Shown here in pieces: positions 3,283 to 21,540 of a stretch of 32,000 bases of DNA (its first letter is position 1; every line of letters starts with the position of its first letter). Source of the stretch: Aliivibrio fischeri ES114 (lineage in GTDB: Bacteria > Pseudomonadota > Gammaproteobacteria > Enterobacterales > Vibrionaceae). The notes under the pieces are model-generated. The model saw only the letters and a program-made list of their open reading frames with translations. It was not told the origin of the DNA and made no database searches. The stretch is from the NCBI RefSeq assembly GCF_000011805.1, contig NC_006840.2, one strand, 5' to 3'. The translations under genes were made by a program, and so were the position numbers.

Positions 3283-4947
3283 CTGGTTAAACCAGTGTTT
3301 AATTCGACATAATAAGGCGGAACAATGAGTTGGATGATGTTCAACATCTTCAATATGTTGAGCAATTAAAGAGAAAACAGACTCATGTTCTTCTGACTGT
3401 AGTGGTAGCCCCAATAAAATCTCAACTGCTTCTTCAACGTTATTTACAGGGTAGATTGTAAATAAGTTGTCTTCTACAGCTTGAACGACATCATCGGAAA
3501 GTACAAGATTAATTCCATTTGTTGCTGGGATAATAACACCTTGTTCACCCGTTAACCCACGTTTTTGGCATAACTGGTAAAAGGCCTCAATTTTTTCGTT
3601 AACACCGCCAATAGGCTGAGCAGAACCAAACTGATCAACCGAGCCTGTAATGGCGATACTCTGAGTTATTGGTTTAATTGATAGGGCACTTAATAATGCG
3701 CACAGTTCAGCTAAGCTCGCGCTGTCACCATCAACTTCACAATAAGATTGTTCAAATACCATTGAAGCGGTAAAAGGTAAAGGTTCACGAGAATCAAGTT
3801 GGCTTAAGATATAAGCTTGCATGATCAACATGCCTTTAGCATGAATATTACCACCAAGTTCCACTTTGCGCTCAACATCAGATAGTTCACCATCACCAGT
3901 ATGTACAACACAAGAAATGCGTGAAGCTTCACCATAAGAAATAGGGTGCCCTGGAACAGATACGACGGTTAGCCCGTTAATTTGGCCAACTTTTTCACCT
4001 TGTGTTTCAATAAGAATATTGTTTTCAAGAATATCGTCTAACGCTCGTGATGGTAAATAAGATTCAATATAGTATTTAGATTCAATCGCTCGAATAAAAT
4101 CGGCTGCACAAATAGTTGTTTTTGACTCAGAAGCTAATGAAGCATGAGCTAGAAATGAATTTAACCAAATTAAACATAAGTTTAATCGAGTTTGATCTTC
4201 ACACTCACGCGCACCAACTTTTAATAAAGGCAATAGCGATAGGCCATCATTTAATGGTAAATGTCCGTTATCGACTAATATCGTATTAATGAGTTGAACG
4301 TAAGCAGTTACGCTGTCACTTGATATTTTTGTATCAAATTCGTACTCAGAGTACATTGACATGCCGGCAAGTAAGTCGGGTTCTAACTGTTCAATTTCAC
4401 CTAATAAAGCTCGGTCACCAACGATGAGTAATTTTACATCGACAGACAGTTGGTGGTTTGTTGCTTTAGGTGATTTAAGATCACTTGAAGGAATCGTTAT
4501 AGAACTGCCTTGAAGTACGCTTTTTAATCTAGGCCATAAGTATGGATTAGCAAGTAAGATACTTGGCGATATAATTAAAAAACCACCATTAGCTTGCTGA
4601 AGTAAGCCTGATTCTAAACTGTCAGATTTATTATGATAGATACCAAATAGCTCTGCTTCAGATGCACTTTCAGCAATAATGATTGGTACATCAGTATCCT
4701 GATCAACACGGTTCTTGCTATTATTCTTTAGCCATGTAGCTGCATATTCACGATAAACTCGATTATCTAATGCGGTTAGCTGAAGTATATTAATGCCATT
4801 GATTTGAGAGAAATTCGTCAGTGCTTGAACTAATCGAGGTTGCAAAGAGTAGGCGTCTTGAACTTCAGATAAGAGTGCATTATTCAAATCGTTTTCGATA
4901 TGCGCGAAATTTGGTGAAATTGTAAATGGCGTGTCTACTAACTGCAT
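3277..4947 (-). CDS. ycbZ: Lon-like S16 protease lacking the AAA+ module (YcbZ/LonH type)
   Basis: 556 aa with a C-terminal Lon proteolytic domain (catalytic-Ser context EVDGDSASLAEL, Lys context GGVNEKIEAF). It sits between fabA and matP exactly as ycbZ does in E. coli. Confidence 0.8.
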   Translation of the reverse strand: MQLVDTPFTISPNFAHIENDLNNALLSEVQDAYSLQPRLVQALTNFSQINGINILQLTALDNRVYREYAATWLKNNSKNRVDQDTDVPIIIAESASEAELFGIYHNKSDSLESGLLQQANGGFLIISPSILLANPYLWPRLKSVLQGSSITIPSSDLKSPKATNHQLSVDVKLLIVGDRALLGEIEQLEPDLLAGMSMYSEYEFDTKISSDSVTAYVQLINTILVDNGHLPLNDGLSLLPLLKVGARECEDQTRLNLCLIWLNSFLAHASLASESKTTICAADFIRAIESKYYIESYLPSRALDDILENNILIETQGEKVGQINGLTVVSVPGHPISYGEASRISCVVHTGDGELSDVERKVELGGNIHAKGMLIMQAYILSQLDSREPLPFTASMVFEQSYCEVDGDSASLAELCALLSALSIKPITQSIAITGSVDQFGSAQPIGGVNEKIEAFYQLCQKRGLTGEQGVIIPATNGINLVLSDDVVQAVEDNLFTIYPVNNVEEAVEILLGLPLQSEEHESVFSLIAQHIEDVEHHPTHCSALLCRIKHWFNQR

Positions 4948-5082: not shown

Positions 5083-5095
5083 GTTACACTGTCAC
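5083..5095. promoter_or_regulatory. matS-like site upstream of matP (12/13 to GTGACRNYGTCAC)
   Basis: GTTACACTGTCAC lies 33 nt upstream of the matP ATG, with a single mismatch at position 3. Confidence 0.35.
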
Positions 5096-5127: not shown

Positions 5128-5574
5128 ATGAAATACCAACAACTTGAAAACCTAGAAGCTGGTTGGAAATGGATGTATTTGTTCAATAAGCACCGTATGG
5201 GAGAATCTATTACTTGTTATATTGATTCAAGTGAACAAAAAAAGTGGGTTGATGAGTTTGTAAAACTTGAACATGAACCCGTTAAAGCGCTTGAGTGGAT
5301 TCAAAAACACATGAATCCAGATCTTGAAAATAAACTTAAACAAGCAATAAGAGCGAAACGTAAACGTCATTTTAATGCAGAACAAGAACATACACGCAAG
5401 AAATCGATAGATCTTGATTATCGAGTATGGGAAAAGCTTTCATTAAGAGCACAAGATTTAGATTCAACGCTATCAGATACCATCGAATATTTACTTAGTG
5501 AAGCGTCAAAAACAGAAAAGGTTAGCCGAACTGTTTCTTCATTAAAAGCAGACTTACATGAGCTCCTGAAATAG
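5128..5574 (+). CDS. matP: Ter macrodomain organiser MatP
   Basis: 148 aa: MKYQQLENLEAGWKWMYLFNKHRMGESITCY... plus a ribbon-helix-helix and coiled-coil C-terminus. This is the classic MatP pattern, with synteny to ycbZ. Confidence 0.93.
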   Translation: MKYQQLENLEAGWKWMYLFNKHRMGESITCYIDSSEQKKWVDEFVKLEHEPVKALEWIQKHMNPDLENKLKQAIRAKRKRHFNAEQEHTRKKSIDLDYRVWEKLSLRAQDLDSTLSDTIEYLLSEASKTEKVSRTVSSLKADLHELLK

Positions 5575-5608: not shown

Positions 5609-5644
5609 TGATTGAGTTATTTAATTAATCAAATAACTCAATCA
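5609..5644. terminator. 14-bp perfect inverted repeat between convergent matP and the yceB-like gene
   Basis: tgattgagttattt (5609-5622) pairs with aaataactcaatca (5631-5644). The right arm includes the stop codon and last codons of the lipoprotein gene. A second weak hairpin ctcct/aggag plus T6 lies at 5563-5584, right after the matP stop. Confidence 0.5.
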
Positions 5645-6179
5645 CTAGCTTATTGTTTTTTATAACTAAATTAGGTTCTGAGGACTTAATAAGAGATTCT
5701 TTAAGCTTATTAGAATCGAGCTTATATGCTGGTTCATTTGAAAGTGCGTAGCCAATAATTGAAACCGCAGGCTTTAAAAGAGCAGCAATATCTTGCGGTA
5801 ATTCGCCATTTTGATCTTCAAATTTTTCTAATTTAAGTGCTTTTAAATAAATTTCACCTGTTTTTTTATCGTATTCAGGAATCGCACTGAACTCTAGAGA
5901 TAAAGCTAAATTCTGGGTGAGTTGATTCATGATCTCAACATCAGCGGTTGTATTTGCATAAACAGCAATTCGATTAGCATCTACACGGCCAATAGTGACG
6001 TTAACATCCTCAACATTTACTTGCGCATAAAGCACGCCAGGGATACCGACAGATTTTTCAACATGAACTTCATTAGAAAGATAATCTGTCATTTCTTGTT
6101 CTGTAACTGAATAACTAGCACATCCAGATAATGAAAGAACACAAGACAGAGATAATAGCATTGATTTACAGTGATTCAT
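5625..6179 (-). CDS. yceB: YceB-like (DUF1439) lipoprotein
   Basis: The track ORF starts at 6218, but the ATG at 6179 gives MNHCKSMLLSLSCVLSLSGC with lipobox LSGC. The body aligns by eye with E. coli YceB (YSVTEQEM / VGIPGV...TIGR / EPAYKL / ...ELFD). Confidence 0.8.
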   Translation of the reverse strand: MNHCKSMLLSLSCVLSLSGCASYSVTEQEMTDYLSNEVHVEKSVGIPGVLYAQVNVEDVNVTIGRVDANRIAVYANTTADVEIMNQLTQNLALSLEFSAIPEYDKKTGEIYLKALKLEKFEDQNGELPQDIAALLKPAVSIIGYALSNEPAYKLDSNKLKESLIKSSEPNLVIKNNKLVIELFD

Positions 6180-6504
6180 GGAAGTCCCATATTGAATAGT
6201 AATTAGGTATTGTGACAATGTAACTATTTAAAAATATCGGATACAGTTTACTGGTAGATTAAAGTAATAACAAATTAAAACGTAAGATATCACCAAGTAT
6301 TGACTTAAAGTGTCATGATAACTTAGTAGAACGAGTGAATAGTAAAAATGACGATACGCCTTAAATGAGCGATTTAAAGAAATGAATCAGTAAACAGAAA
6401 GCTAAGACAGTACCAGAAGTATTAAAGAAACTTGAAACCATATAGAAACTAATAAAAAATAGCATTTTAGAGCCGGTTTGATCTGATAATTAACCTAATA
6501 CCTT

Positions 6505-6532
6505 AGTGCGCATTATGTATATTATGTTAAAT
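6505..6532 (+). other. dif: dif chromosome-dimer resolution site (XerC arm, central hexamer, XerD arm)
   Basis: AGTGCGCATTA TGTATA TTATGTTAAAT is 26/28 identical to E. coli dif GGTGCGCATAA TGTATA TTATGTTAAAT. The central region and XerD arm are identical. It lies in the only large non-coding gap, 1 kb from matP. Confidence 0.9.
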
Positions 6533-6635
6533 AGGCTTTAGGGTTAATATAGATTGTTGCTTGTAATACTGCACTATCTCTTGTCTTCACAGCTTTTAGC
6601 TTCAATTTAACCATAATCGTATTTACCATAAAATA

Positions 6636-6683
6636 GCTAATAATCATTAAATAATACTTCGTATTTATCTATTGATTATTAGC
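6636..6683 (-). repeat. 11-bp perfect inverted repeat, possible terminator of the kinase operon
   Basis: gctaataatca (6636-6646) pairs with tgattattagc (6673-6683), with a 26-nt loop. It starts 24 nt downstream of the kinase stop on the minus strand. Confidence 0.35.
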
Positions 6684-6706
6684 CTCATTCTTACAAGCTA
6701 AGTTAC

Positions 6707-8791
6707 TTAACAACTGTATTTGATTAAAATATCTGATAAGTCTTTTGCTCTGATTGGTTTTGATATGAAATCGTTCATACCAGCTTCCAAACACATTTCT
6801 TTTTCTGTCTCCATTGCATGAGCTGTGATTGCTATTATAGGCAGCTCTATACCTAACTTTCTTAATTCAGTTGTTGCACTGATGCCATCTTTAACTGGCA
6901 TCGATACATCCATAAGAACCACATCAAAAAAACAACCGTTTGTCTGATGTTTAAATATTGAAATGGCCTCTTCACCATTACTGACTATTGATACATGGTG
7001 ACCTTGTTTTTCTAGCAATATCTGAAGAACCGCCTGATTTGCTTTATTATCTTCTGCTAACAAGATATTTAAGCTACGCTGATTAACCAATTCTTTAGCT
7101 TCATTATTTAATTGTTTCGGTAAATCGCTGATTTCTTTTAAAGGCAGAGTTATTTTAAAAGTACTGCCTATATTTAATCGGCTCTCTACTGTTATCGTTC
7201 CTTGCATTAATTCAACTAAGCGCTTAATAATGGCTAAACCAAGACCAGTTCCACCGTATTTTCTAGTTATTGAACTGTCTGCTTGCACAAATGGTTTAAA
7301 CAATTGCTCTAATGTTGTTGAAGCAATGCCGATACCGGTATCACTAACTGATATGGATATTGAATTATTAGGTAGCTTCTCGATCTTAACAGCGACATGT
7401 CCATGATTAGTGAATTTAATTGCATTACCAACTAAATTGAAGATTACTTGGGATAACCTGGTTGCATCAGCAAAAACATATTTAGGTACATTTTGTGACG
7501 CCGTAACAGTTAAAGTTATTCCTTTATCTTTAGCTCTTGTATCTAGAAAATTAATAGATGTATTTAAAGATCTTAATAAATCAATTGGTTGTTCATTTAA
7601 AACAAATGTTCCCGCTTCAATCCTAGATATATCAAGTACATCACTGATTATTGTAAGCAGCAATTGAGAGGAACTTTCCATTTGATTTAACCAATCTAAT
7701 TGTTCTTCAGAAAGCAAGCTACTATGAAACACATCAACAAGACCAAGTATTGAGTTTAATGGTGTTCTAATTTCATGGCTCATCATAGCTAAAAATTGTG
7801 ATTTTGCTTTATTGGCTTTTTCAGCTTCAGTTTTAGCGGTTTGAATATCTCTGATTCGTTTTTTTCTCGCTGAAATATCTTTGGCCGTACCTCGGTAACC
7901 AACAAAAGTACCAAACTCATCAAAAAATGGTTTACCACTCAGGCTTAACCAAACTTTATTATTGAAAATATCAGGGTTCCATTCAACTTCGTGAAATGGC
8001 ACAAGCCTCTTCTCTGATTCAATTATCGTAGAATTAATGAAATCATTACTGATCAAGCTAAGTAGATTTTGAGAGATGATTGATGTGTTATTTATTTTGG
8101 TATCAGACAAGTAGGTAAAATTAAATTGAGGATCCGTTTCCCAAAACCAGTCACCAACGGTTTCAGCAAAGTCTTGAAATCGCTCTTTACTTAGAAAAAG
8201 TTCTTTTGTCTTCAGTGAAACCATCGCATTGAGGCGTTCTTTATAATCAATATCAATTACTGCTCGCTCAACTAATGGCATAAAGCGTTCTATTTTCTCT
8301 TTCTCGAGAGTTGAATAAGCCCCAAACTTAGAACATGCTAAAATAATAACAGCATAGCCAGAATGAGACTTTAAACCACATATTGCTACAGAAGAAAATA
8401 AGCTCTGTAATTCTGTATTTTTGAATAGAAATTCATTTGTTTTATGCGGTTGAAATAAGATGATAGTTTCATCATGACAGGCTCGATGAAAAAGATCGTT
8501 ATAACGCCATGTTAAATGATCGAAATACGGATTTGTTGATGCTAATACAGAGAAACTGTCTTTATCTGTAGATGAAACCACAATAGCATTATCGAATTCG
8601 ACAAATTCCTTAATGACATTTAATAAACCATTAAAAATATCTTCTTTTGTTTGAGCATCTGAAATTGCAGATACCCCTCGCAAAATAACTTGGTTTTCTT
8701 TATGAAGTTGGGCTTCACGTTCTTTACTTCGCTTTAATTCCAACAGTATCTCTTGAAATTGTTCTTTTTCAGAATGATTTTTCACAGACAA
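6707..8791 (-). CDS. Cytoplasmic hybrid sensor histidine kinase (NahK/VpsS-like, partner of the FIST/NosP protein)
   Basis: 694 aa with no TM segment. Domains in order: N-terminal coiled coil and GAF-like region, PAS (RFQDFAETVGDWFWETD), H-box MSHEIRTPLN, HATPase (G-boxes DTGIGI, GGTGLGL), C-terminal receiver (DVVLMDVSMPVKDG ... ITAHA). The TTG start lies 3 nt after the upstream gene's stop. Confidence 0.85.
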   Translation of the reverse strand: MSVKNHSEKEQFQEILLELKRSKEREAQLHKENQVILRGVSAISDAQTKEDIFNGLLNVIKEFVEFDNAIVVSSTDKDSFSVLASTNPYFDHLTWRYNDLFHRACHDETIILFQPHKTNEFLFKNTELQSLFSSVAICGLKSHSGYAVIILACSKFGAYSTLEKEKIERFMPLVERAVIDIDYKERLNAMVSLKTKELFLSKERFQDFAETVGDWFWETDPQFNFTYLSDTKINNTSIISQNLLSLISNDFINSTIIESEKRLVPFHEVEWNPDIFNNKVWLSLSGKPFFDEFGTFVGYRGTAKDISARKKRIRDIQTAKTEAEKANKAKSQFLAMMSHEIRTPLNSILGLVDVFHSSLLSEEQLDWLNQMESSSQLLLTIISDVLDISRIEAGTFVLNEQPIDLLRSLNTSINFLDTRAKDKGITLTVTASQNVPKYVFADATRLSQVIFNLVGNAIKFTNHGHVAVKIEKLPNNSISISVSDTGIGIASTTLEQLFKPFVQADSSITRKYGGTGLGLAIIKRLVELMQGTITVESRLNIGSTFKITLPLKEISDLPKQLNNEAKELVNQRSLNILLAEDNKANQAVLQILLEKQGHHVSIVSNGEEAISIFKHQTNGCFFDVVLMDVSMPVKDGISATTELRKLGIELPIIAITAHAMETEKEMCLEAGMNDFISKPIRAKDLSDILIKYSC

Positions 8792-8794
8792 TAC

Positions 8795-9979
8795 CTAATT
8801 ATGAAATAAAACGGTTGATACCATTAAGTTACCGTGAGCATTTTCCCCACCAGTAAAACGACCTTGTTCACCAAACGTAAATGGGCAAATATAAGGAGCT
8901 CCATGCATTGCCGCATTCACAGAATCACAGACATCTAACATAGAGGATTTAATGTGCATCATTGAACCGGCACAAAAAATATTAATGCCACCAATTGGAA
9001 CAAATTTCTCTTGTTTAAAATTCGTCGCGGAGTCAATGACCCGTTGAGGTCGTGATATGATTTGATCTTTTTCTCCATACATAACAAATACTTCTTCGCC
9101 TTCATATATATTAGCGAAGCATTCAATCCCTCCGTCATTCGTTATCTTAGTTGGATGTGCCAATTTAAAGTATGGAATATCATACATATAACCTGCAATA
9201 CGTCCGAATGGGTATTGAGCCATGTTTTCTAATAAATTAGTTTTTTTGTTTAACAAACAAGACATATTCGTCCACTCTTTATAAACCTCAAGAGCCGGAC
9301 GATTATCTATTTCATAAATGGTTCGTTGGTCAGTTTTCGTAGCTATGCCAGAGACATTTGAAGGTGCGTAACCCGAGTGAAATGAGTAAGAAACTTTACA
9401 AGAAGGATAGAAAACTGAAATGGAAATACCGCTTTTCACACAACCATCCTGAGTAAAGACACTCCATAAGCCTTGGTTATGATTATCTGCGGCAGTTCCC
9501 CCAATAAGTGGAACTGGAGAGCCAAAAAAAGTATCAATAACTGAAATTATTTTTTCTTCATGGCCTGAAGTTGCGTGTAATAATACTAATGAAGGTAATT
9601 CCCCTTCTCTACCACTATCTTTAATTGCTTCTTCTAATAAGTGGATGGTTAATGACTCTATATCATAGTGAGAAACAAATTGGCTGATACTTGTTCCATA
9701 GCAACCTAAACCGGAATCGAAAATTCCCCATACCGCTATGGAGTGGTCATCAGCAAATCCCTGATCGGTCATTATCCCTTGGCAAGACGTACACCCATGA
9801 ATTTTACTAGACGGAAACTGACTTTTTAGTGTCGAGATGATCGTTTCTTTATTATGTCTCTCAGTGAAATAACATAAAATTAAATTTGGAGCAGATTGTT
9901 CAGTAGCCATATTTCGAATACAGTCATATACGGCATCATATGAATTGTTTTTTTGCGAAACGCCACTAATTATCTTCAA
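8795..9979 (-). CDS. FIST-domain sensor protein (NosP-type, putative heme/NO sensor)
   Basis: 394-aa soluble protein with FIST_N/FIST_C-like layout. TTG start with GGAG 5 nt upstream. It is translationally adjacent to the hybrid kinase, the arrangement described for NosP-NahK and NosP-VpsS. Confidence 0.7.
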   Translation of the reverse strand: MKIISGVSQKNNSYDAVYDCIRNMATEQSAPNLILCYFTERHNKETIISTLKSQFPSSKIHGCTSCQGIMTDQGFADDHSIAVWGIFDSGLGCYGTSISQFVSHYDIESLTIHLLEEAIKDSGREGELPSLVLLHATSGHEEKIISVIDTFFGSPVPLIGGTAADNHNQGLWSVFTQDGCVKSGISISVFYPSCKVSYSFHSGYAPSNVSGIATKTDQRTIYEIDNRPALEVYKEWTNMSCLLNKKTNLLENMAQYPFGRIAGYMYDIPYFKLAHPTKITNDGGIECFANIYEGEEVFVMYGEKDQIISRPQRVIDSATNFKQEKFVPIGGINIFCAGSMMHIKSSMLDVCDSVNAAMHGAPYICPFTFGEQGRFTGGENAHGNLMVSTVLFHN

Positions 9980-10803: not shown

Positions 10804-12234
10804 ATGAGCCAAGTACAGCAGCATGAACAAAACTACAACTATACCGTTGTTCGTCAGTTCTCTTTAGTTACCATACTTTGGGGTATTGTTGGCATGGGTG
10901 TAGGTGTACTAATTGCCGCTCAGTTAGTTTGGCCGCAACTAAATTTCGACACACCATGGCTAACGTATAGCCGTTTGCGCCCTCTGCATACCAATGCAGT
11001 AATCTTCGCATTCGGTACAAGTGCCCTGTTCGCAACATCTTATTATGTTGTTCAGAGAACTTGTCAAACACGTTTGTTTGGTGGTCCATTAGTTGCGTTC
11101 ACCTTCTGGGGATGGCAAGCAATTATTCTAGCAGCAGCAATTACGTTGCCTCTAGGTATTACATCAGGTAAAGAATATGCCGAATTAGAGTGGCCGATTG
11201 ATATCGCTATTACACTAGTTTGGGTTGCGTATGCTATCGTATTCTTTGGAACCTTGTTTAAACGTAAAACATCTCATATTTACGTAGCTAACTGGTTTTT
11301 TGGAGCCTTCATTTTAACCGTTGCTGTTCTTCATATTGTGAATAGTCTTGCGGTTCCTGTATCTCTAACAAAATCGTATTCAATGTACTCAGGTGCGGTC
11401 GATGCGATGGTTCAATGGTGGTACGGTCATAATGCGGTAGGTTTCCTTTTAACTGCAGGTTTCTTAGGTATGATGTATTACTTCGTACCGAAACAAGCTG
11501 AACGTCCAGTTTACTCTTACCGTTTATCTATTGTTCACTTCTGGGCATTAGTTTCTCTTTATATCTGGGCTGGTCCTCACCACTTACATTACACCGCACT
11601 ACCTGATTGGACACAGTCGCTTGGTATGGTGATGTCATTAGTCCTATTCGCACCATCATGGGGCGGCATGATTAATGGTATTATGACGTTATCTGGTGCT
11701 TGGCATAAGCTTCGTTATGACCCTATCTTACGTTTCCTAATTGTTTCTTTGTCCTTCTATGGTATGTCGACATTTGAAGGCCCAATGATGGCAATTAAAT
11801 CTGTAAATGCCCTATCTCACTATACTGATTGGACAATTGGTCACGTACACTCTGGTGCTTTAGGTTGGGTTGCAATGGTTTCAATTGGTTCTTTATACCA
11901 CTTAATTCCTAAGCTATTTGGTCAAGAACGTATGTACTCTGTATCACTAATCAATGTTCACTTCTGGTTAGCAACAATCGGTACCGTTTTTTATATTGTA
12001 GCAATGTGGATTTCTGGTGTAATGCAAGGCTTGATGTGGCGAGCAGTAAATGCTGACGGTACATTAACATACAGCTTTGTTGAATCATTAGAAGCATCAT
12101 ACCCATTTTACTTCGTTCGCTTTATAGGTGGTTTAATCTTCTTATCAGGAATGTTCTTACTTGCATACAATACATATAAGACCATTACTGCTCCGAAGAA
12201 CAGCCTTAAAGCAATTCCACAACCGGCACAATAA
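10804..12234 (+). CDS. ccoN: cbb3-type cytochrome c oxidase subunit I
   Basis: 476-aa polytopic protein with the CcoN signature [10 protein letters not shown] and conserved His ligands. Confidence 0.96.
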
Positions 12235-13054: not shown

Positions 13055-14022
13055 GTACTTTTTGGAGTCTCTGGATAAGTGTCATTACCATTGGTACGTT
13101 GGTTGGTTGTGCTATTTTACTTCGATTCTGTTTAAAAAATACGACAGGCATTGAAGAAGGCGAAGACATGGGCCATGAATACGATGGTATTCGTGAGCTT
13201 AACAACCCATTACCAAAATGGTGGTCTTATCTTTTTTGGGCAACACTAATATTCTCGATTGTGTATTTAATCCTTTACCCGGGATTAGGTAACTTTAAAG
13301 GAGTGTTAGGTTGGACAAGTTCGGATCAAACCGTTCGAACAATTGAAGAATCTCGTGCATCTATTGAGCGCTCTCACAAAGAGAAAACATTGGATCAATT
13401 TGCACGAGAACTGGACGATGCAAATACGAACTTTGGTGAAACCTTTTCAAAACTTGCATATAAACCAGGAACGTCTGATTTCCGTGAAATTACAGACATA
13501 GCTAATGATGATGAAGCATTAAAAGTTGGACAACGTCTATTCTTACAAAACTGCTCTCAGTGTCATGGTTCTGATGCTCGTGGCATGATTGGCTTCCCTA
13601 ACCTAACGGATACAGCATGGTTATATGGTGGCGAACCGCAAGCTATCAAAACAACCATTATGGAAGGCCGTATTGGTAACATGCCAGCTTGGGGAGACGC
13701 TTTAGGTGCTGACGGTGTAAAAGAAGTTGTTTCTTATACGCTTAGCTTATCAGGCCGTAAAGTAAACGCTAAAGAAGCAGCAGCAGGAAAACAACGCTTT
13801 GTTGTCTGTGCCGCTTGTCACGGTACAGATGGTAAAGGTAACCCTGCATTAGGAGCACCTGACCTTACTGATCAGGACTGGCAATTCGGTGATTCACGAG
13901 CTGCTGTAACTGAAACTGTGACTAATGGTCGTCAAGGCGTTATGCCTGCATGGAAAGACGTATTAGGTGAAGAAAAAGTACAACTTCTATCTGCTTACGT
14001 TTGGAGCTTAAGCAACAAATAA
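13051..14022 (+). CDS. ccoP: cbb3-type cytochrome c oxidase subunit III (diheme)
   Basis: 323 aa with an N-terminal TM region and two CXXCH motifs (CSQCHG, CAACHG). Confidence 0.95.
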   Translation: MSTFWSLWISVITIGTLVGCAILLRFCLKNTTGIEEGEDMGHEYDGIRELNNPLPKWWSYLFWATLIFSIVYLILYPGLGNFKGVLGWTSSDQTVRTIEESRASIERSHKEKTLDQFARELDDANTNFGETFSKLAYKPGTSDFREITDIANDDEALKVGQRLFLQNCSQCHGSDARGMIGFPNLTDTAWLYGGEPQAIKTTIMEGRIGNMPAWGDALGADGVKEVVSYTLSLSGRKVNAKEAAAGKQRFVVCAACHGTDGKGNPALGAPDLTDQDWQFGDSRAAVTETVTNGRQGVMPAWKDVLGEEKVQLLSAYVWSLSNK

Positions 14023-14030
14023 AATAATAA

Positions 14031-14065
14031 AAGCCTCTGTATCATCAGAGGCTTATTCTTTTCTT
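14031..14065 (+). terminator. Hairpin/terminator after ccoP
   Basis: aagcctctg (14031-14039) pairs with cagaggctt (14046-14054), followed by a T-rich tail. A second 7-bp hairpin cttattc/gaataag follows. Confidence 0.6.
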
Positions 14066-14602: not shown

Positions 14603-16981
14603 ATGTCGAAGGAATGTTACCACTGCAATGAGCCTGTACCATCAGGCTCAAATTTTCATGTTGATATCTTAGGTGAAACTCGTGATATGTGTTGCCCAGG
14701 CTGTGAATCAGTAGCGCAAACTATCGTTGAAAATGGCCTGTCTTCTTATTATCAATATCGTACAGCTCCAGCAGATAAAGCAGATCTAATCCCTGAACAA
14801 TTAAAAGCACTTACTCATTATGATCATGAAGAAATTCAAAAAGAGTTTGTGAGAACAAATGATAATTATCGTGAAGTGACATTGTCACTTGATGGTGTAT
14901 CTTGTGCAGCATGTGCATGGCTAATTGAAAAACAACTTTCAGCTGCTAAAGGCATTCATCAAATTAAAGTGAATACTTCAACACATCGCGCATTGCTTAG
15001 TTGGAATCCAGAAGAAACTGAGCTTAGCTCCCTACTTACTTTAATTCATCAACTAGGCTATAAAGCAGCTCCTTTTGAAGCAGACAAACAAGAAGAAGAA
15101 TATCATCGTTCGATGAAGCAATATTTATATCGTTTAGGTATTGCTGGATTAGCCACAATGCAGGTAATGATGCTTGCTGTTGCTCTTTATCTTGAAGTAT
15201 TTGGTGATCTCGACGAAGAGTTCCGTAATTACTTACGCTATGTCAGTCTGGTTTTTGCAACGCCAGTAATGCTTTATTCTGCCTTACCATTTTACATGAA
15301 TGCGTGGCGTAGCCTTAAAGCACGAACATTAGGTATGGATGTCCCTGTTTCAATTGCTATGTTATTTGCTTATTTTGCAAGTGTCGTTGCAACTGTGACT
15401 GAAACGGGAGAGGTTTTCTTTGAATCTGTGGCGATGTTTACTTTCTTCTTATTACTTGGTCGCTTTCTTGAAATGCGTGCGAGAAGAAAAGCCGCAGCAA
15501 TTACAGGTAACCTCCTTAAACTTATCCCAGTAATGGCAACGTTATCTTCAGGAAAGCGAGTTCCGGCTCGTACATTAGATATAGACGATATTGTTGTTGT
15601 TCCACCAGGTGAACACCTTCCAGCTGATGGTATTGTTATTTCAGGAACAAGCGCTATTGATGAATCCATGTTTACCGGTGAATCAATGCCAATTGCAAAG
15701 AGTGAATCCGATACAGTTTATGCAGGTACGATCAATGGTGATGGCAACCTAACCATCAAAGTTACCAAAACAAAAGCAGACTCGCTCATCTCTAATATTG
15801 TGAAACTGCAAGATGAAGCGCAAATGTCCAAACCAAAAGTGGCAGAAATCGCCGATCTTGTTGCTCGCTATTTTGTTGCTGGAATATTGATAATCTCTGC
15901 ATTTACTTGGTTCTATTGGCATGAAACAAAACCAGATGACGCCTTTTGGATTATGCTTTCAGTACTTGTTGCAACCTGTCCATGTGCCCTTTCATTAGCC
16001 ACTCCGACAGCCATTACCTGTTCCACATCACGCTTAGCTCAATTTGGACTGATGTTACGTAGAGGACATGTTCTAGAAACGTTATGTAAAGTAAATCGTC
16101 TAGTTATAGATAAAACCGGAACTTTAACCGAAGGTAATATTCGCTTAGTTAAGGTGAATACATTCATTAATACGACTGAAGAAGAATGCAAAGCGCTTGC
16201 TGCAGAACTTGAATCTTTTGCTAATCACCCAATTGCACAAGCATTTTCATCATTTAGAAAGCCTGAAACTACCTATTTTGAGCGTGTTGAAAATGTTATT
16301 GGCTCTGGACTCATTGGCTATCACAATAACAGTGAATGGAAAATTGGTCATAAAGCGTTTGCAGCTCCGTCAACTCAAATTGCCGATGAAGATAACTATC
16401 AAGTTTGGTTATCTAAAGATAATCAAGTTGTAGCTGCATTTTCACTTGATGATCCAATAAGAAAAGAGAGTAAAGAGTTTATTGATGCTTTGCATAAGTT
16501 AGGCATCAAAATAACTATGCTTACTGGAGATAGTAGCTCTGCAGTATCTAAAGTTGCCAATGAATTGGATATTGATACAGTCGTTTCTGGCGCTTCTCCG
16601 CAAGGAAAATTGGAATATCTCACCTCATTACCAGAGCATGAAATTAGTTTAATGGTTGGTGATGGAATAAATGATGCACCGACTTTGGCTGGCGCTCATT
16701 TATCCATAGCTATGGGATCAGGAACTGATGTCGCTAAAGCTTCTGCGGATATGATTTTACTTGGCGATCAACTAACACGATTAATTGATGCTCGAGAATT
16801 AGCGATGAAAACACGTAAAATTATTCGCGAGAACTTAGCTTGGGCTTTAGGTTACAATGCAATCATTCTACCACTTGCTGTTATGGGATTAGTTGCACCA
16901 TATATTGCCGTTATCGGAATGTCTGGGAGCTCTATTATTGTAGTAACTAACTCATTGAGGTTATTAAAAGAAAATGGCTAG
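14603..16981 (+). CDS. ccoI: Copper-translocating P1B-type ATPase for cbb3 maturation (CcoI/FixI)
   Basis: 792 aa. N-terminal CYHCNEP...CCPGC Cys cluster, HMA domain (GVSCAACAW), TM CPC motif, DKTGTLT, GDGINDAP. It sits between ccoH and ccoS. Confidence 0.93.
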   Translation: MSKECYHCNEPVPSGSNFHVDILGETRDMCCPGCESVAQTIVENGLSSYYQYRTAPADKADLIPEQLKALTHYDHEEIQKEFVRTNDNYREVTLSLDGVSCAACAWLIEKQLSAAKGIHQIKVNTSTHRALLSWNPEETELSSLLTLIHQLGYKAAPFEADKQEEEYHRSMKQYLYRLGIAGLATMQVMMLAVALYLEVFGDLDEEFRNYLRYVSLVFATPVMLYSALPFYMNAWRSLKARTLGMDVPVSIAMLFAYFASVVATVTETGEVFFESVAMFTFFLLLGRFLEMRARRKAAAITGNLLKLIPVMATLSSGKRVPARTLDIDDIVVVPPGEHLPADGIVISGTSAIDESMFTGESMPIAKSESDTVYAGTINGDGNLTIKVTKTKADSLISNIVKLQDEAQMSKPKVAEIADLVARYFVAGILIISAFTWFYWHETKPDDAFWIMLSVLVATCPCALSLATPTAITCSTSRLAQFGLMLRRGHVLETLCKVNRLVIDKTGTLTEGNIRLVKVNTFINTTEEECKALAAELESFANHPIAQAFSSFRKPETTYFERVENVIGSGLIGYHNNSEWKIGHKAFAAPSTQIADEDNYQVWLSKDNQVVAAFSLDDPIRKESKEFIDALHKLGIKITMLTGDSSSAVSKVANELDIDTVVSGASPQGKLEYLTSLPEHEISLMVGDGINDAPTLAGAHLSIAMGSGTDVAKASADMILLGDQLTRLIDARELAMKTRKIIRENLAWALGYNAIILPLAVMGLVAPYIAVIGMSGSSIIVVTNSLRLLKENG

Positions 16982-20892: not shown

Positions 20893-21540
20893 CTATTTTA
20901 CTAGCCATGGAGTAACTTTTAATGCTTCACCTGGTAAAATAAATTTCACATCATCTTTATACTTTCTAAGATCTACTGTTACTTTTCCATTATTAAGTGG
21001 CAGTACATCCCCTGTTGAAACAGCAACACCACTAGTGACAGCGTCACTAAAAACGAAGGTGATGCCTTCAACATCAGGCATGAAATATTTGGCAAACATT
21101 CCACCAATATCTGCAAGCATCGCATCCATTTGAACCGTTAAGTCTCTGAGTTCTTTAGCTGATACAGAATCACGGAAAGATTTATTTGCTAATACCTCCA
21201 TAGAGATATCACACTGTTTACCTTCCTCTGTTTGGATATAAACTAACGGATTAGCTGACTTTAAATTGTTATCGATTGGAAGAGGCAGTTCTTGGTTACT
21301 TGGAATTGTAAATTCCTCATAATGCTCTTCTTTTTCCATCCATGCCTTTGTAATTTGACAAGCTTTACCTGTTTTAGCGTCGTTAAAGAAAAGTGCCATA
21401 CGAACATCATCATGCCCTTCTTTCTGGTTCACTTTTAATTGATAGTAAAGCTTTGTATACGTAAAGCGGTACTGCTCAGCTTTCACAGGTAGTGCCAAAC
21501 ACAATAGTGACAACGTCGTCGCACTAATCCATTTTTTCAT
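20893..21540 (-). CDS. Secreted protein of unknown function (I recall such Vibrio proteins as DUF2987; unverified)
   Basis: 215 aa with signal peptide MKKWISATTLSLLCLALPVKA/E. The ATG lies 1 nt after the upstream gene's stop. Confidence 0.65.
   Translation of the reverse strand: MKKWISATTLSLLCLALPVKAEQYRFTYTKLYYQLKVNQKEGHDDVRMALFFNDAKTGKACQITKAWMEKEEHYEEFTIPSNQELPLPIDNNLKSANPLVYIQTEEGKQCDISMEVLANKSFRDSVSAKELRDLTVQMDAMLADIGGMFAKYFMPDVEGITFVFSDAVTSGVAVSTGDVLPLNNGKVTVDLRKYKDDVKFILPGEALKVTPWLVK

Follow-up and report, generated by a model that had tools for sequence, protein, structure and literature searches.

The question raised by AGTGCGCATTATGTATATTATGTTAAAT, the 28-bp sequence at positions 6505–6532 (plus strand) of a 32,000-nt stretch of chromosome I of Aliivibrio fischeri ES114 (contig NC_006840.2; hereafter the window), is whether it is dif, the site at which XerC and XerD resolve chromosome dimers, and what the DNA around it may contribute. 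We put the probability that it is the dif of chromosome I at about 0.96. The site itself adds nothing new, since it is already known as a prediction from 2011. On its XerD side lies a module that is statistically robust and, as far as has been checked, undescribed.

The dif site and the replication terminus

The 28-mer reads AGTGCGCATTA-TGTATA-TTATGTTAAAT and has the full 11-6-11 dif architecture of the gamma-proteobacterial consensus: an XerC-binding arm, AGTGCGCATTA, at 6505–6515, a central region, TGTATA, at 6516–6521, and an XerD-binding arm, TTATGTTAAAT, at 6522–6532, all on the plus strand. The hexamer is the canonical central region of beta- and gamma-proteobacteria (Val et al. 2008, PMC2533119). 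E. coli dif (GGTGCGCATAA-TGTATA-TTATGTTAAAT), which likewise lies in the terminus near matS, shares the centre, the entire XerD arm and 9 of the 11 bases of the XerC arm; the two substitutions, at XerC-arm positions 1 and 10, are typical of Vibrionaceae. The original prediction had counted 26 of 28 identical bases with the differences at just these positions, and the comparison bears it out. When both strands were searched for E. coli dif with at most three mismatches, the 28-mer was the single match in the window, and none of 100 dinucleotide-preserving shuffles of the window yielded any. In 119 related Vibrionaceae loci there is likewise one dif per locus.

With AGTGCGCATTATGTATGTTATGTTAAAT, which we take to be the sequence of V. 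cholerae dif1, the 28-mer has a single mismatch, at position 6 of the centre (TGTATG in dif1, TGTATA here); with dif2 it has five. Two papers give the chromosome I dif of V. cholerae N16961 as AGTGCGTATTATGTATGTTATGTTAAAT, which differs also at XerC-arm position 7 and is identical at 26 of 28 bases. The predicted identity of 27/28 thus holds for the former sequence and not for the listed N16961 site, and is strain-dependent. The literature comparators for V. cholerae dif1 and V. fischeri dif were those of Kono et al. 2011, Carnoy & Roten 2009 and Val et al. 2008.

Judged from its homologues, E. coli dif and V. cholerae dif1, the site would be bound by XerC over its first 11 bp and by XerD over its last 11. 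At septation, FtsK moving along the DNA toward dif would then activate XerD, the dependence on FtsK being assigned on the same grounds, and XerD would start strand exchange at the borders of TGTATA, so that chromosome dimers are resolved.

For chromosome I of V. fischeri, the predicted dif published for strains ES114 and MJ11 is identical to this 28-mer at every base (Kono et al. 2011, BMC Genomics 12:19, PMC3025954, Additional file 2). The site can be called unannotated, as it had been, in sequence records only.

That the window spans the replication terminus, as had been proposed, is borne out by complete chromosomes. In MJ11 (CP001139.1; 2,905,029 bp) the 28-mer recurs unchanged at 1,461,499, or 50.3% of the record, and in two further complete A. 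fischeri chromosome records dif lies at 49.1% and 48.5%, all of these records presumably beginning near oriC. The published chromosome I positions are 1,446,504 in ES114 and 1,461,498 in MJ11, the latter in agreement with our mapping, and the differences between dif and the GC-skew shift are, in the units of that study, 0.918 and 0.007, respectively (PMC3025954). The same study found a single dif per chromosome, that of V. fischeri chromosome II being AGTGCGCATTATATATCTTATGTTAAAT, with the central region TATATC. It also answers the whole-replicon skew analysis that had been suggested as a check: the 28-mer sits at the published shift point, and no distant switch was found.

Features of the Ter macrodomain surround the site. 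The gene for the Ter macrodomain protein MatP (5128–5574, plus strand) matches NCBIfam NF003471 over its full length (E = 6.7e-70) and carries the Pfam domains MatP and MatP_C; its distance from dif is 931 bp, close to the 1 kb that had been estimated. Its product agrees at every residue with the MatP encoded on A. fischeri chromosome I records. The window contains six matS-like sites, against an expectation of 0.04, and four are no more than 2.2 kb away from dif. Two are perfect (GTGACATTGTCAC at 14876–14888 and GTGACAGCGTCAC at 21035–21047). The other four each have one mismatch, always the same symmetric G-to-T or C-to-A change (GTKAC...GTMAC): GTTACGCTGTCAC at 4307–4319, GTTACACTGTCAC at 5083–5095, GTGACAATGTAAC at 6212–6224, which overlaps the start of an open reading frame (ORF) for a DUF1439 lipoprotein, and GTGACGCCGTAAC at 7495–7507. 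The site at 5083–5095 precedes the matP start codon by 32 nt and may serve in autoregulation. The clustering of matS near dif fits the density peak published for V. cholerae dif1 and dif2, a species in which matS varies more widely than it does in E. coli (Espinosa et al. 2024, PMC11564523).

The site was also said to lie in the only large gene-free gap, and the 488-bp interval that holds it (6219–6706) is the largest stretch of the window without an ORF of at least 60 aa; a 580-bp gap at 2112–2692 contains rmf (57 aa). The dif gap is bounded by the DUF1439 lipoprotein gene (5625–6218, minus strand) and a gene for a hybrid histidine kinase (6707–8791, minus strand). The latter and a gene for a FIST-domain protein form the first operon on the XerD side (6707–9979, minus strand), which converges on dif; the FIST-domain protein has a weak NosP-like match (E = 3e-15) that falls under the family cut-off.

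What weighs against the identification consists of limits only; counter-evidence there is none. Within the window the GC skew is +0.058 to the left of dif (z = 2.8) and −0.020 to its right (z = −2.0) in a noisy profile, and the cumulative skew is likewise noisy, being dominated by gene orientation, with a positive stretch at 12–20 kb. The FtsK-orienting polar sequence (KOPS), GGGNAGGG, occurs once in the 32 kb, at 2633 on the plus strand and pointing toward dif, against 0.59 expected in so short a window of a genome with 37% GC; this count is too small to establish polarity. None of xerC, xerD and ftsK lies in the 32-kb window, and the searchable literature holds no XerC/XerD binding or recombination experiment on A. 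fischeri.

Empty and occupied copies of the site

The central region of dif determines which integrative mobile elements exploiting Xer (IMEX) can integrate. The 28-mer is the attachment site exploited by mobile elements, and in the window it is unoccupied. Over 20,456 bp the window matches an uninterrupted contig (L009; run SRR3826941) with 100% identity, and it is colinear with MJ11, the DUF1439 gene, the 488-bp intergenic region and the histidine kinase gene being contiguous. It was aligned with 16 loci from other A. fischeri assemblies, and wherever extra DNA is present the synteny stops exactly at 6504/6505 or at 6532/6533. Among 24 sister-strain contigs that were read, at least 13 are occupied and 9 are empty like the window; the inserts are inoviruses, a corticovirus-like prophage, islands and an element of the IS1202 family of insertion sequences (IS). 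The prediction of an unoccupied attB thus stands, and the cross-strain alignment proposed for it has yielded insertions bounded by dif and a hybrid or degenerate dif.

The inoviruses, which have no integrase, are of three kinds: one with Zot, secretin and Phage_GPA; one forming a tandem Phage_CRI/DNA_bind array; and one with RstB and Zot that resembles CTX, of which the right end alone was seen. At the left junction of the first two kinds the chromosomal XerC arm runs into a central region that comes from the phage and is 7 or 11 nt long, as in AGTGCGCATTA-TGAGAGC-TTATGTAAAAT and AGTGCGCATTA-TGTGCCCTGAG-TTATGTTTAAAT; at the right junction of all three the full dif is restored. Crossovers thus map to the inner border of the XerC arm, and these junctions provide indirect evidence that Xer uses the site in vivo. 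In both gene content (Zot, RstB, Phage_CRI, Phage_GPA) and junctions, with a hybrid left end that retains the chromosomal XerC arm and a restored dif at the right, these insertions resemble the attachment sites of the CTX-, VGJ- and TLC-phage types of IMEX in V. cholerae, except that in the window no element is present.

Insertions on the XerD side have another form. The corticovirus-like prophage, about 11.5 kb long with a P2_N/P2_C coat protein, has a full dif at its left and, at its right, AGGGCGTTCAC-TGTATA-TTATGTTAAAT, a copy with a degenerate XerC arm. It was read at 11395–20447 of contig L003 and at 14027–20456 of L010 (CP160629.1, approximately 1,436,472–1,448,011), where it parts the full dif from the flank module discussed below. 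Islands on the same side were found in two different strains, with one junction seen in each. The island in L002 (11374–11560; integrase, VspR and GmrSD-like genes) brings its own 69-nt spacer, in phase, followed by the conserved core of that module and a hairpin of about 20 bp, and the right junction of the island in L014 (approximately 14016–14060) has only a degenerate dif remnant, GTAGATTAGTTAAAT. In contrast to the inoviruses, XerD-side elements with a full left dif and a right copy degenerate in its XerC arm could not be assigned to a described IMEX class.

The IS element is 3.3 kb long, has TGT...ACA ends and was found at 11361–14680 of L005, 11380–14712 of L007 and approximately 14046–17366 of L011. 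Its transposase belongs to the ISNCY/IS1202 family (NCBIfam NF033594, E = 4e-156); its two passenger ORFs, of 395–398 aa and 133 aa, have no family match. Between the element and the XerC arm lie 5 bp, the transposase-proximal end facing dif, and in two independent contexts a 5-bp duplication abuts the arm (ATCTT in L005, CCACT in L011). Transposase family, ends, duplication length and distance from the XerC arm are those of the “dif site hunters” of the ISAjo2/ISAba32 subgroup of IS1202 (Harmer, Pong & Hall 2023, PMC10132070; bioRxiv 10.1101/2022.12.17.520857). The published elements are mostly about 1.5 kb in length, whereas this one is 3.3 kb with its two passengers, and the genus Aliivibrio is mentioned in neither paper; the element looks like a new, cargo-carrying member of that group. 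Its insertion at the XerC arm is a further and independent indication that mobile elements treat the 28-mer as an XerC/XerD site.

In two contigs the IS is part of a composite array (L007 14718–20447; L011 17366–20456), where two inovirus-like units of 3.16 kb (Phage_CRI, Phage_DNA_bind) stand in tandem between two IS copies, dif coming after the second. The pentamers that flank the first copy, ACCTT and CCACT, do not match, which suggests later recombination between IS copies.

Since integration of IMEX generates extra dif-like sites, and hybrids of this kind are present in the sister strains, it might be asked whether the 28-mer is itself an attL or attR junction or a mobile-element decoy, the real dif lying elsewhere on the replicon. 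This is extremely improbable. The site is a full consensus dif in unbroken core synteny common to the empty strains, every sister-strain insert abuts it, and it lies at the published GC-skew shift point; moreover, one dif was predicted per chromosome, and that of chromosome II has a different centre (Kono et al. 2011).

A conserved flank module beyond the XerD arm

The original prediction had reported only one dif-like sequence. This is correct for full sites; it does not extend to partial ones, because two inverted half-sites that resemble the XerD arm lie at 6605–6631. The second-best dif-like 28-mer of the window is found here, at 6621–6648 on the minus strand, with 8 mismatches (P ~0.002 by chance in shuffled intergenic sequence). 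A BLAST comparison with phage records matched the flanks of V. cholerae CTX prophages in two pieces, dif and a motif at the second half-site that is identical at 27 of 28 positions, the intervening 72–88 nt being unrelated.

In the window the module extends over 6605–6683. It is preceded by a spacer (6533–6604) whose sequence is not conserved between species and whose length is constrained. Site A, the half-site proximal to dif, occupies 6605–6616 (minus strand) and reads ATTTAACCATAA on the plus strand, which corresponds to the XerD arm plus one extra base. Site B, the invariant core, occupies 6621–6635 (minus strand); it reads ATTTACCATAAAATA on the plus strand and TATTTTATGGTAAAT on the minus strand, the latter containing TTATGGTAAAT, a 10/11 match to the XerD arm. 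A hairpin or palindrome follows at 6636–6683, with stem halves GCTAATAATCA (6636–6646) and TGATTATTAGC (6673–6683) and a 26-nt loop.

A scan of a genome collection with the 27-mer pattern GTGCGYATTATGTATRTTATGTTAAAT returned 119 loci, every one of them from Vibrionaceae (Vibrio, Photobacterium, Aliivibrio, Enterovibrio, Grimontia and Salinivibrio); the module loci considered here are the window and L017–L137, L160–L162 and L164. The core, ATTT[AG]CCATAAA[AG]T, is present in at least 103 of the 119 species representatives, 57–162 nt past the XerD arm, always on the XerD side, always inverted and once per locus. Controls on the XerC side or the opposite strand gave 9–15 mismatches, and no conserved motif was found on the XerC side. 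Across the 103 species the core comprises 15 consecutive columns of about 2.0 bits each, and it retains the inner bases T1 and G5 of the XerD arm, both of which are crucial in that arm (Miele et al. 2022, PMC9226527). Site A, with the consensus ATTAAACATAA, lies 14–17 nt nearer to dif and matches the XerD arm at 9–10 of 11 positions across species; compared with ATTTAACATAA, it has at most two mismatches in 86 of 102 species and at most three in 101 of 102, against 9 of 202 control windows at the latter threshold. Most loci that lack the module have foreign-looking DNA directly to the right of dif, or a flank too short for a decision. The motif does not belong to a neighboring gene, a possibility that was rejected because the module is found beside 27 different right-hand gene families. 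A 41-aa ORF called across 6522–6647 in one assembly was rejected as well; the spacer varies in length out of frame, and the sequence is not conserved.

The distance between dif and site B, which is 88 nt in the window, falls in clusters at about 57, 68, 79, 89, 100 and 111 nt. With one value per spacer cluster (n = 64–65), the distance is periodic at 10.5–10.8 bp (Rayleigh R = 0.67–0.70), in keeping with a helical repeat near 10.7 bp, and in a permutation test over periods of 5–20 bp none of 2000 permutations reached the observed R. This phasing bears on whether the module could be a functionless scar of an ancient CTX-type element. In the attP of such elements two dif-like sites in inverted orientation are separated by about 90 nt, and the geometry of dif and the module resembles that of the attP1/attP2 pair; at least one island, that in L002, arrives with its own spacer, site B and hairpin. 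Neutral DNA would not be expected to stay invariant across six genera beside a randomized spacer, nor to keep a helical phase or to be retained on both chromosomes, and a scar is thus very improbable. The half-sites are part of a conserved flank module and are not an IMEX remnant.

In the window the DNA fold of the hairpin has an energy of −8.5 kcal/mol (z = −3.3). Across species the stem has a median of 13 paired bases, compared with 6–7 in controls, and 70 of the 94 loci form at least 10 pairs, as do 0 of 94 and 3 of 92 controls; the stem sequences themselves vary between species. Mismatches in the stem are compatible with wobble pairing in 44 cases on the minus strand and in 17 on the plus strand. 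Because of this bias, a T-rich tract on the minus strand and the convergence of most right-hand genes on dif, the hairpin is probably also a minus-strand terminator. It is unlikely that the module is an intrinsic terminator and nothing else, built of the hairpin and the minus-strand tract TATTTTAT that follows it, for a right-hand gene whose ORF is the first on that side and lies on the minus strand in most species, its likeness to XerD sites being incidental. A terminator would need neither 15 invariant bases, nor a second XerD-like half-site 14–17 nt on, nor helical phasing with dif, and a 10/11 match to the arm of the neighboring dif is very unlikely to arise by chance. A terminator scan also called none, for which the AT-rich stem is the cause.

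The module is not confined to primary chromosomes. It accompanies the dif sites of three Vibrionaceae second chromosomes that are filed as plasmids in PLSDB, at +110, +135 and +100 nt from centres TCTATC, TGTATA and TCTATC, respectively. In V. cholerae the dif1 flank has the same sites A and B and the same hairpin, and the module is found also at a site with the dif2 central region. The latter record was rejected as an independent case, its flank being that of dif1 apart from an indel; the dif1-type and dif2-type flanks (L017 and L164) are identical over more than 100 nt. In Salinivibrio the core and the next 100 nt are 82–89% identical between chromosome 1 and the chromid (L028, L040 and L075 against L160 and L161), and the spacers 28–62%. 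Sharing of the module within a lineage suggests, on these alignments, that the two dif regions evolve in concert or exchange sequence.

The conserved stretch beyond the core in Salinivibrio, where the spacer is not conserved, would also suit a sigma-70 promoter (TTAACA-N16-18-TAAAAT, plus strand, directed away from dif) for a short structured RNA, one per chromosome. A promoter scan calls TTAACC-16-TAAAAT at 6607–6634, and a −35-like hexamer with at least 4 of 6 matches lies at the required 16–18 nt in 79 of 103 species, compared with about 16% of control positions. The “−35” element is, however, the same stretch as half-site A, and the invariant bases would form the spacer, a part that is not conserved in promoters. 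On the plus strand the hairpin has no T-tract after it, the stem mismatches favor the minus strand, and most right-hand genes would be antisense to the transcript. An Rfam search of 6150–6800 returned no credible family. We regard a promoter as quite doubtful. An extended −10 promoter on the minus strand, TGGTAAATA, was rejected, its last base being variable across species.

Outside the family, no inverted XerD-arm-like half-site with up to two mismatches was found within 500 bp of one E. coli dif and one Pantoea megaplasmid dif. The 21 phage-borne dif-like sites from a viral-contig scan for dif2-type sites, mostly GGGGCGCATTAGAACCATTATGTTAAAT, gave no close match to the core and serve as a negative control only. 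A literature search with the literal sequences of the 28-mer and the core motif returned no relevant paper, and the searchable open-access literature holds no description of a motif or an additional XerD-type site beside Vibrio dif; Val et al. (2008, PMC2533119) state that the flanks of dif1 and dif2 of Vibrio species have no conserved motifs.

A possible role in recombination

Side, orientation, helical phase, linkage to dif and presence on both chromosomes are fixed features of the conserved module, and these, together with its likeness to the XerD arm, are the reason for preferring the reading, tentative as it is, that it is an undescribed, Vibrionaceae-specific accessory element of the Xer/FtsK system. 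That it acts in cis is our best guess from the sequence comparisons. Additional XerD, with or without XerC, might bind sites A and B, and the recombinases bound there might contact those on dif across a loop of about 60–135 bp; contact across so short a loop would make phase matter. It is possible that dif is thereby kept closed until FtsK, arriving from the module side, strips off the extra recombinases. The effect would be to gate both the resolution of dimers and FtsK-independent events such as the integration of IMEX, and convergent transcription would be stopped by the hairpin before it enters the complex.

Precedents are partial. The plasmid Xer sites cer and psi also have additional cis-acting DNA beside the core site, a likeness that concerns the module only. 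Their accessory sequences, of about 150–180 bp, are found on the XerC side and are bound by PepA together with ArgR or ArcA, whereas the module lies on the XerD side and does not qualify as an accessory sequence of the cer/psi type. In the terminus region of Bacillus subtilis, XDS sites are scattered and are not known to be phased next to dif. They resemble the module in being XerD-arm-like half-sites that lack a proper XerC arm (Karaboja et al. 2021, as cited in PMC10945525). What distinguishes the present case from XDS sites and from cer and psi is the pair of tandem inverted half-sites, 57–135 nt from the XerD arm and in phase with it, accompanied by a hairpin. Cassettes of dif of 28–34 bp recombine without the module.

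For A. fischeri, a model symbiont, the comparison reveals a single 28-bp site through which mobile DNA of at least six kinds has entered, with sister strains supplying clean attL and attR junctions. The implications of the module may be broader. Standard dif cassettes, at 28–34 bp, would omit it. If the module is confirmed, and is indeed undescribed, then V. cholerae dif1 and dif2, the best-studied Xer/IMEX system, would carry a conserved and phased cis-element, and minimal-site measurements of the control of recombination, of the avoidance of chromosome fusion and of phage integration may need to be reinterpreted.

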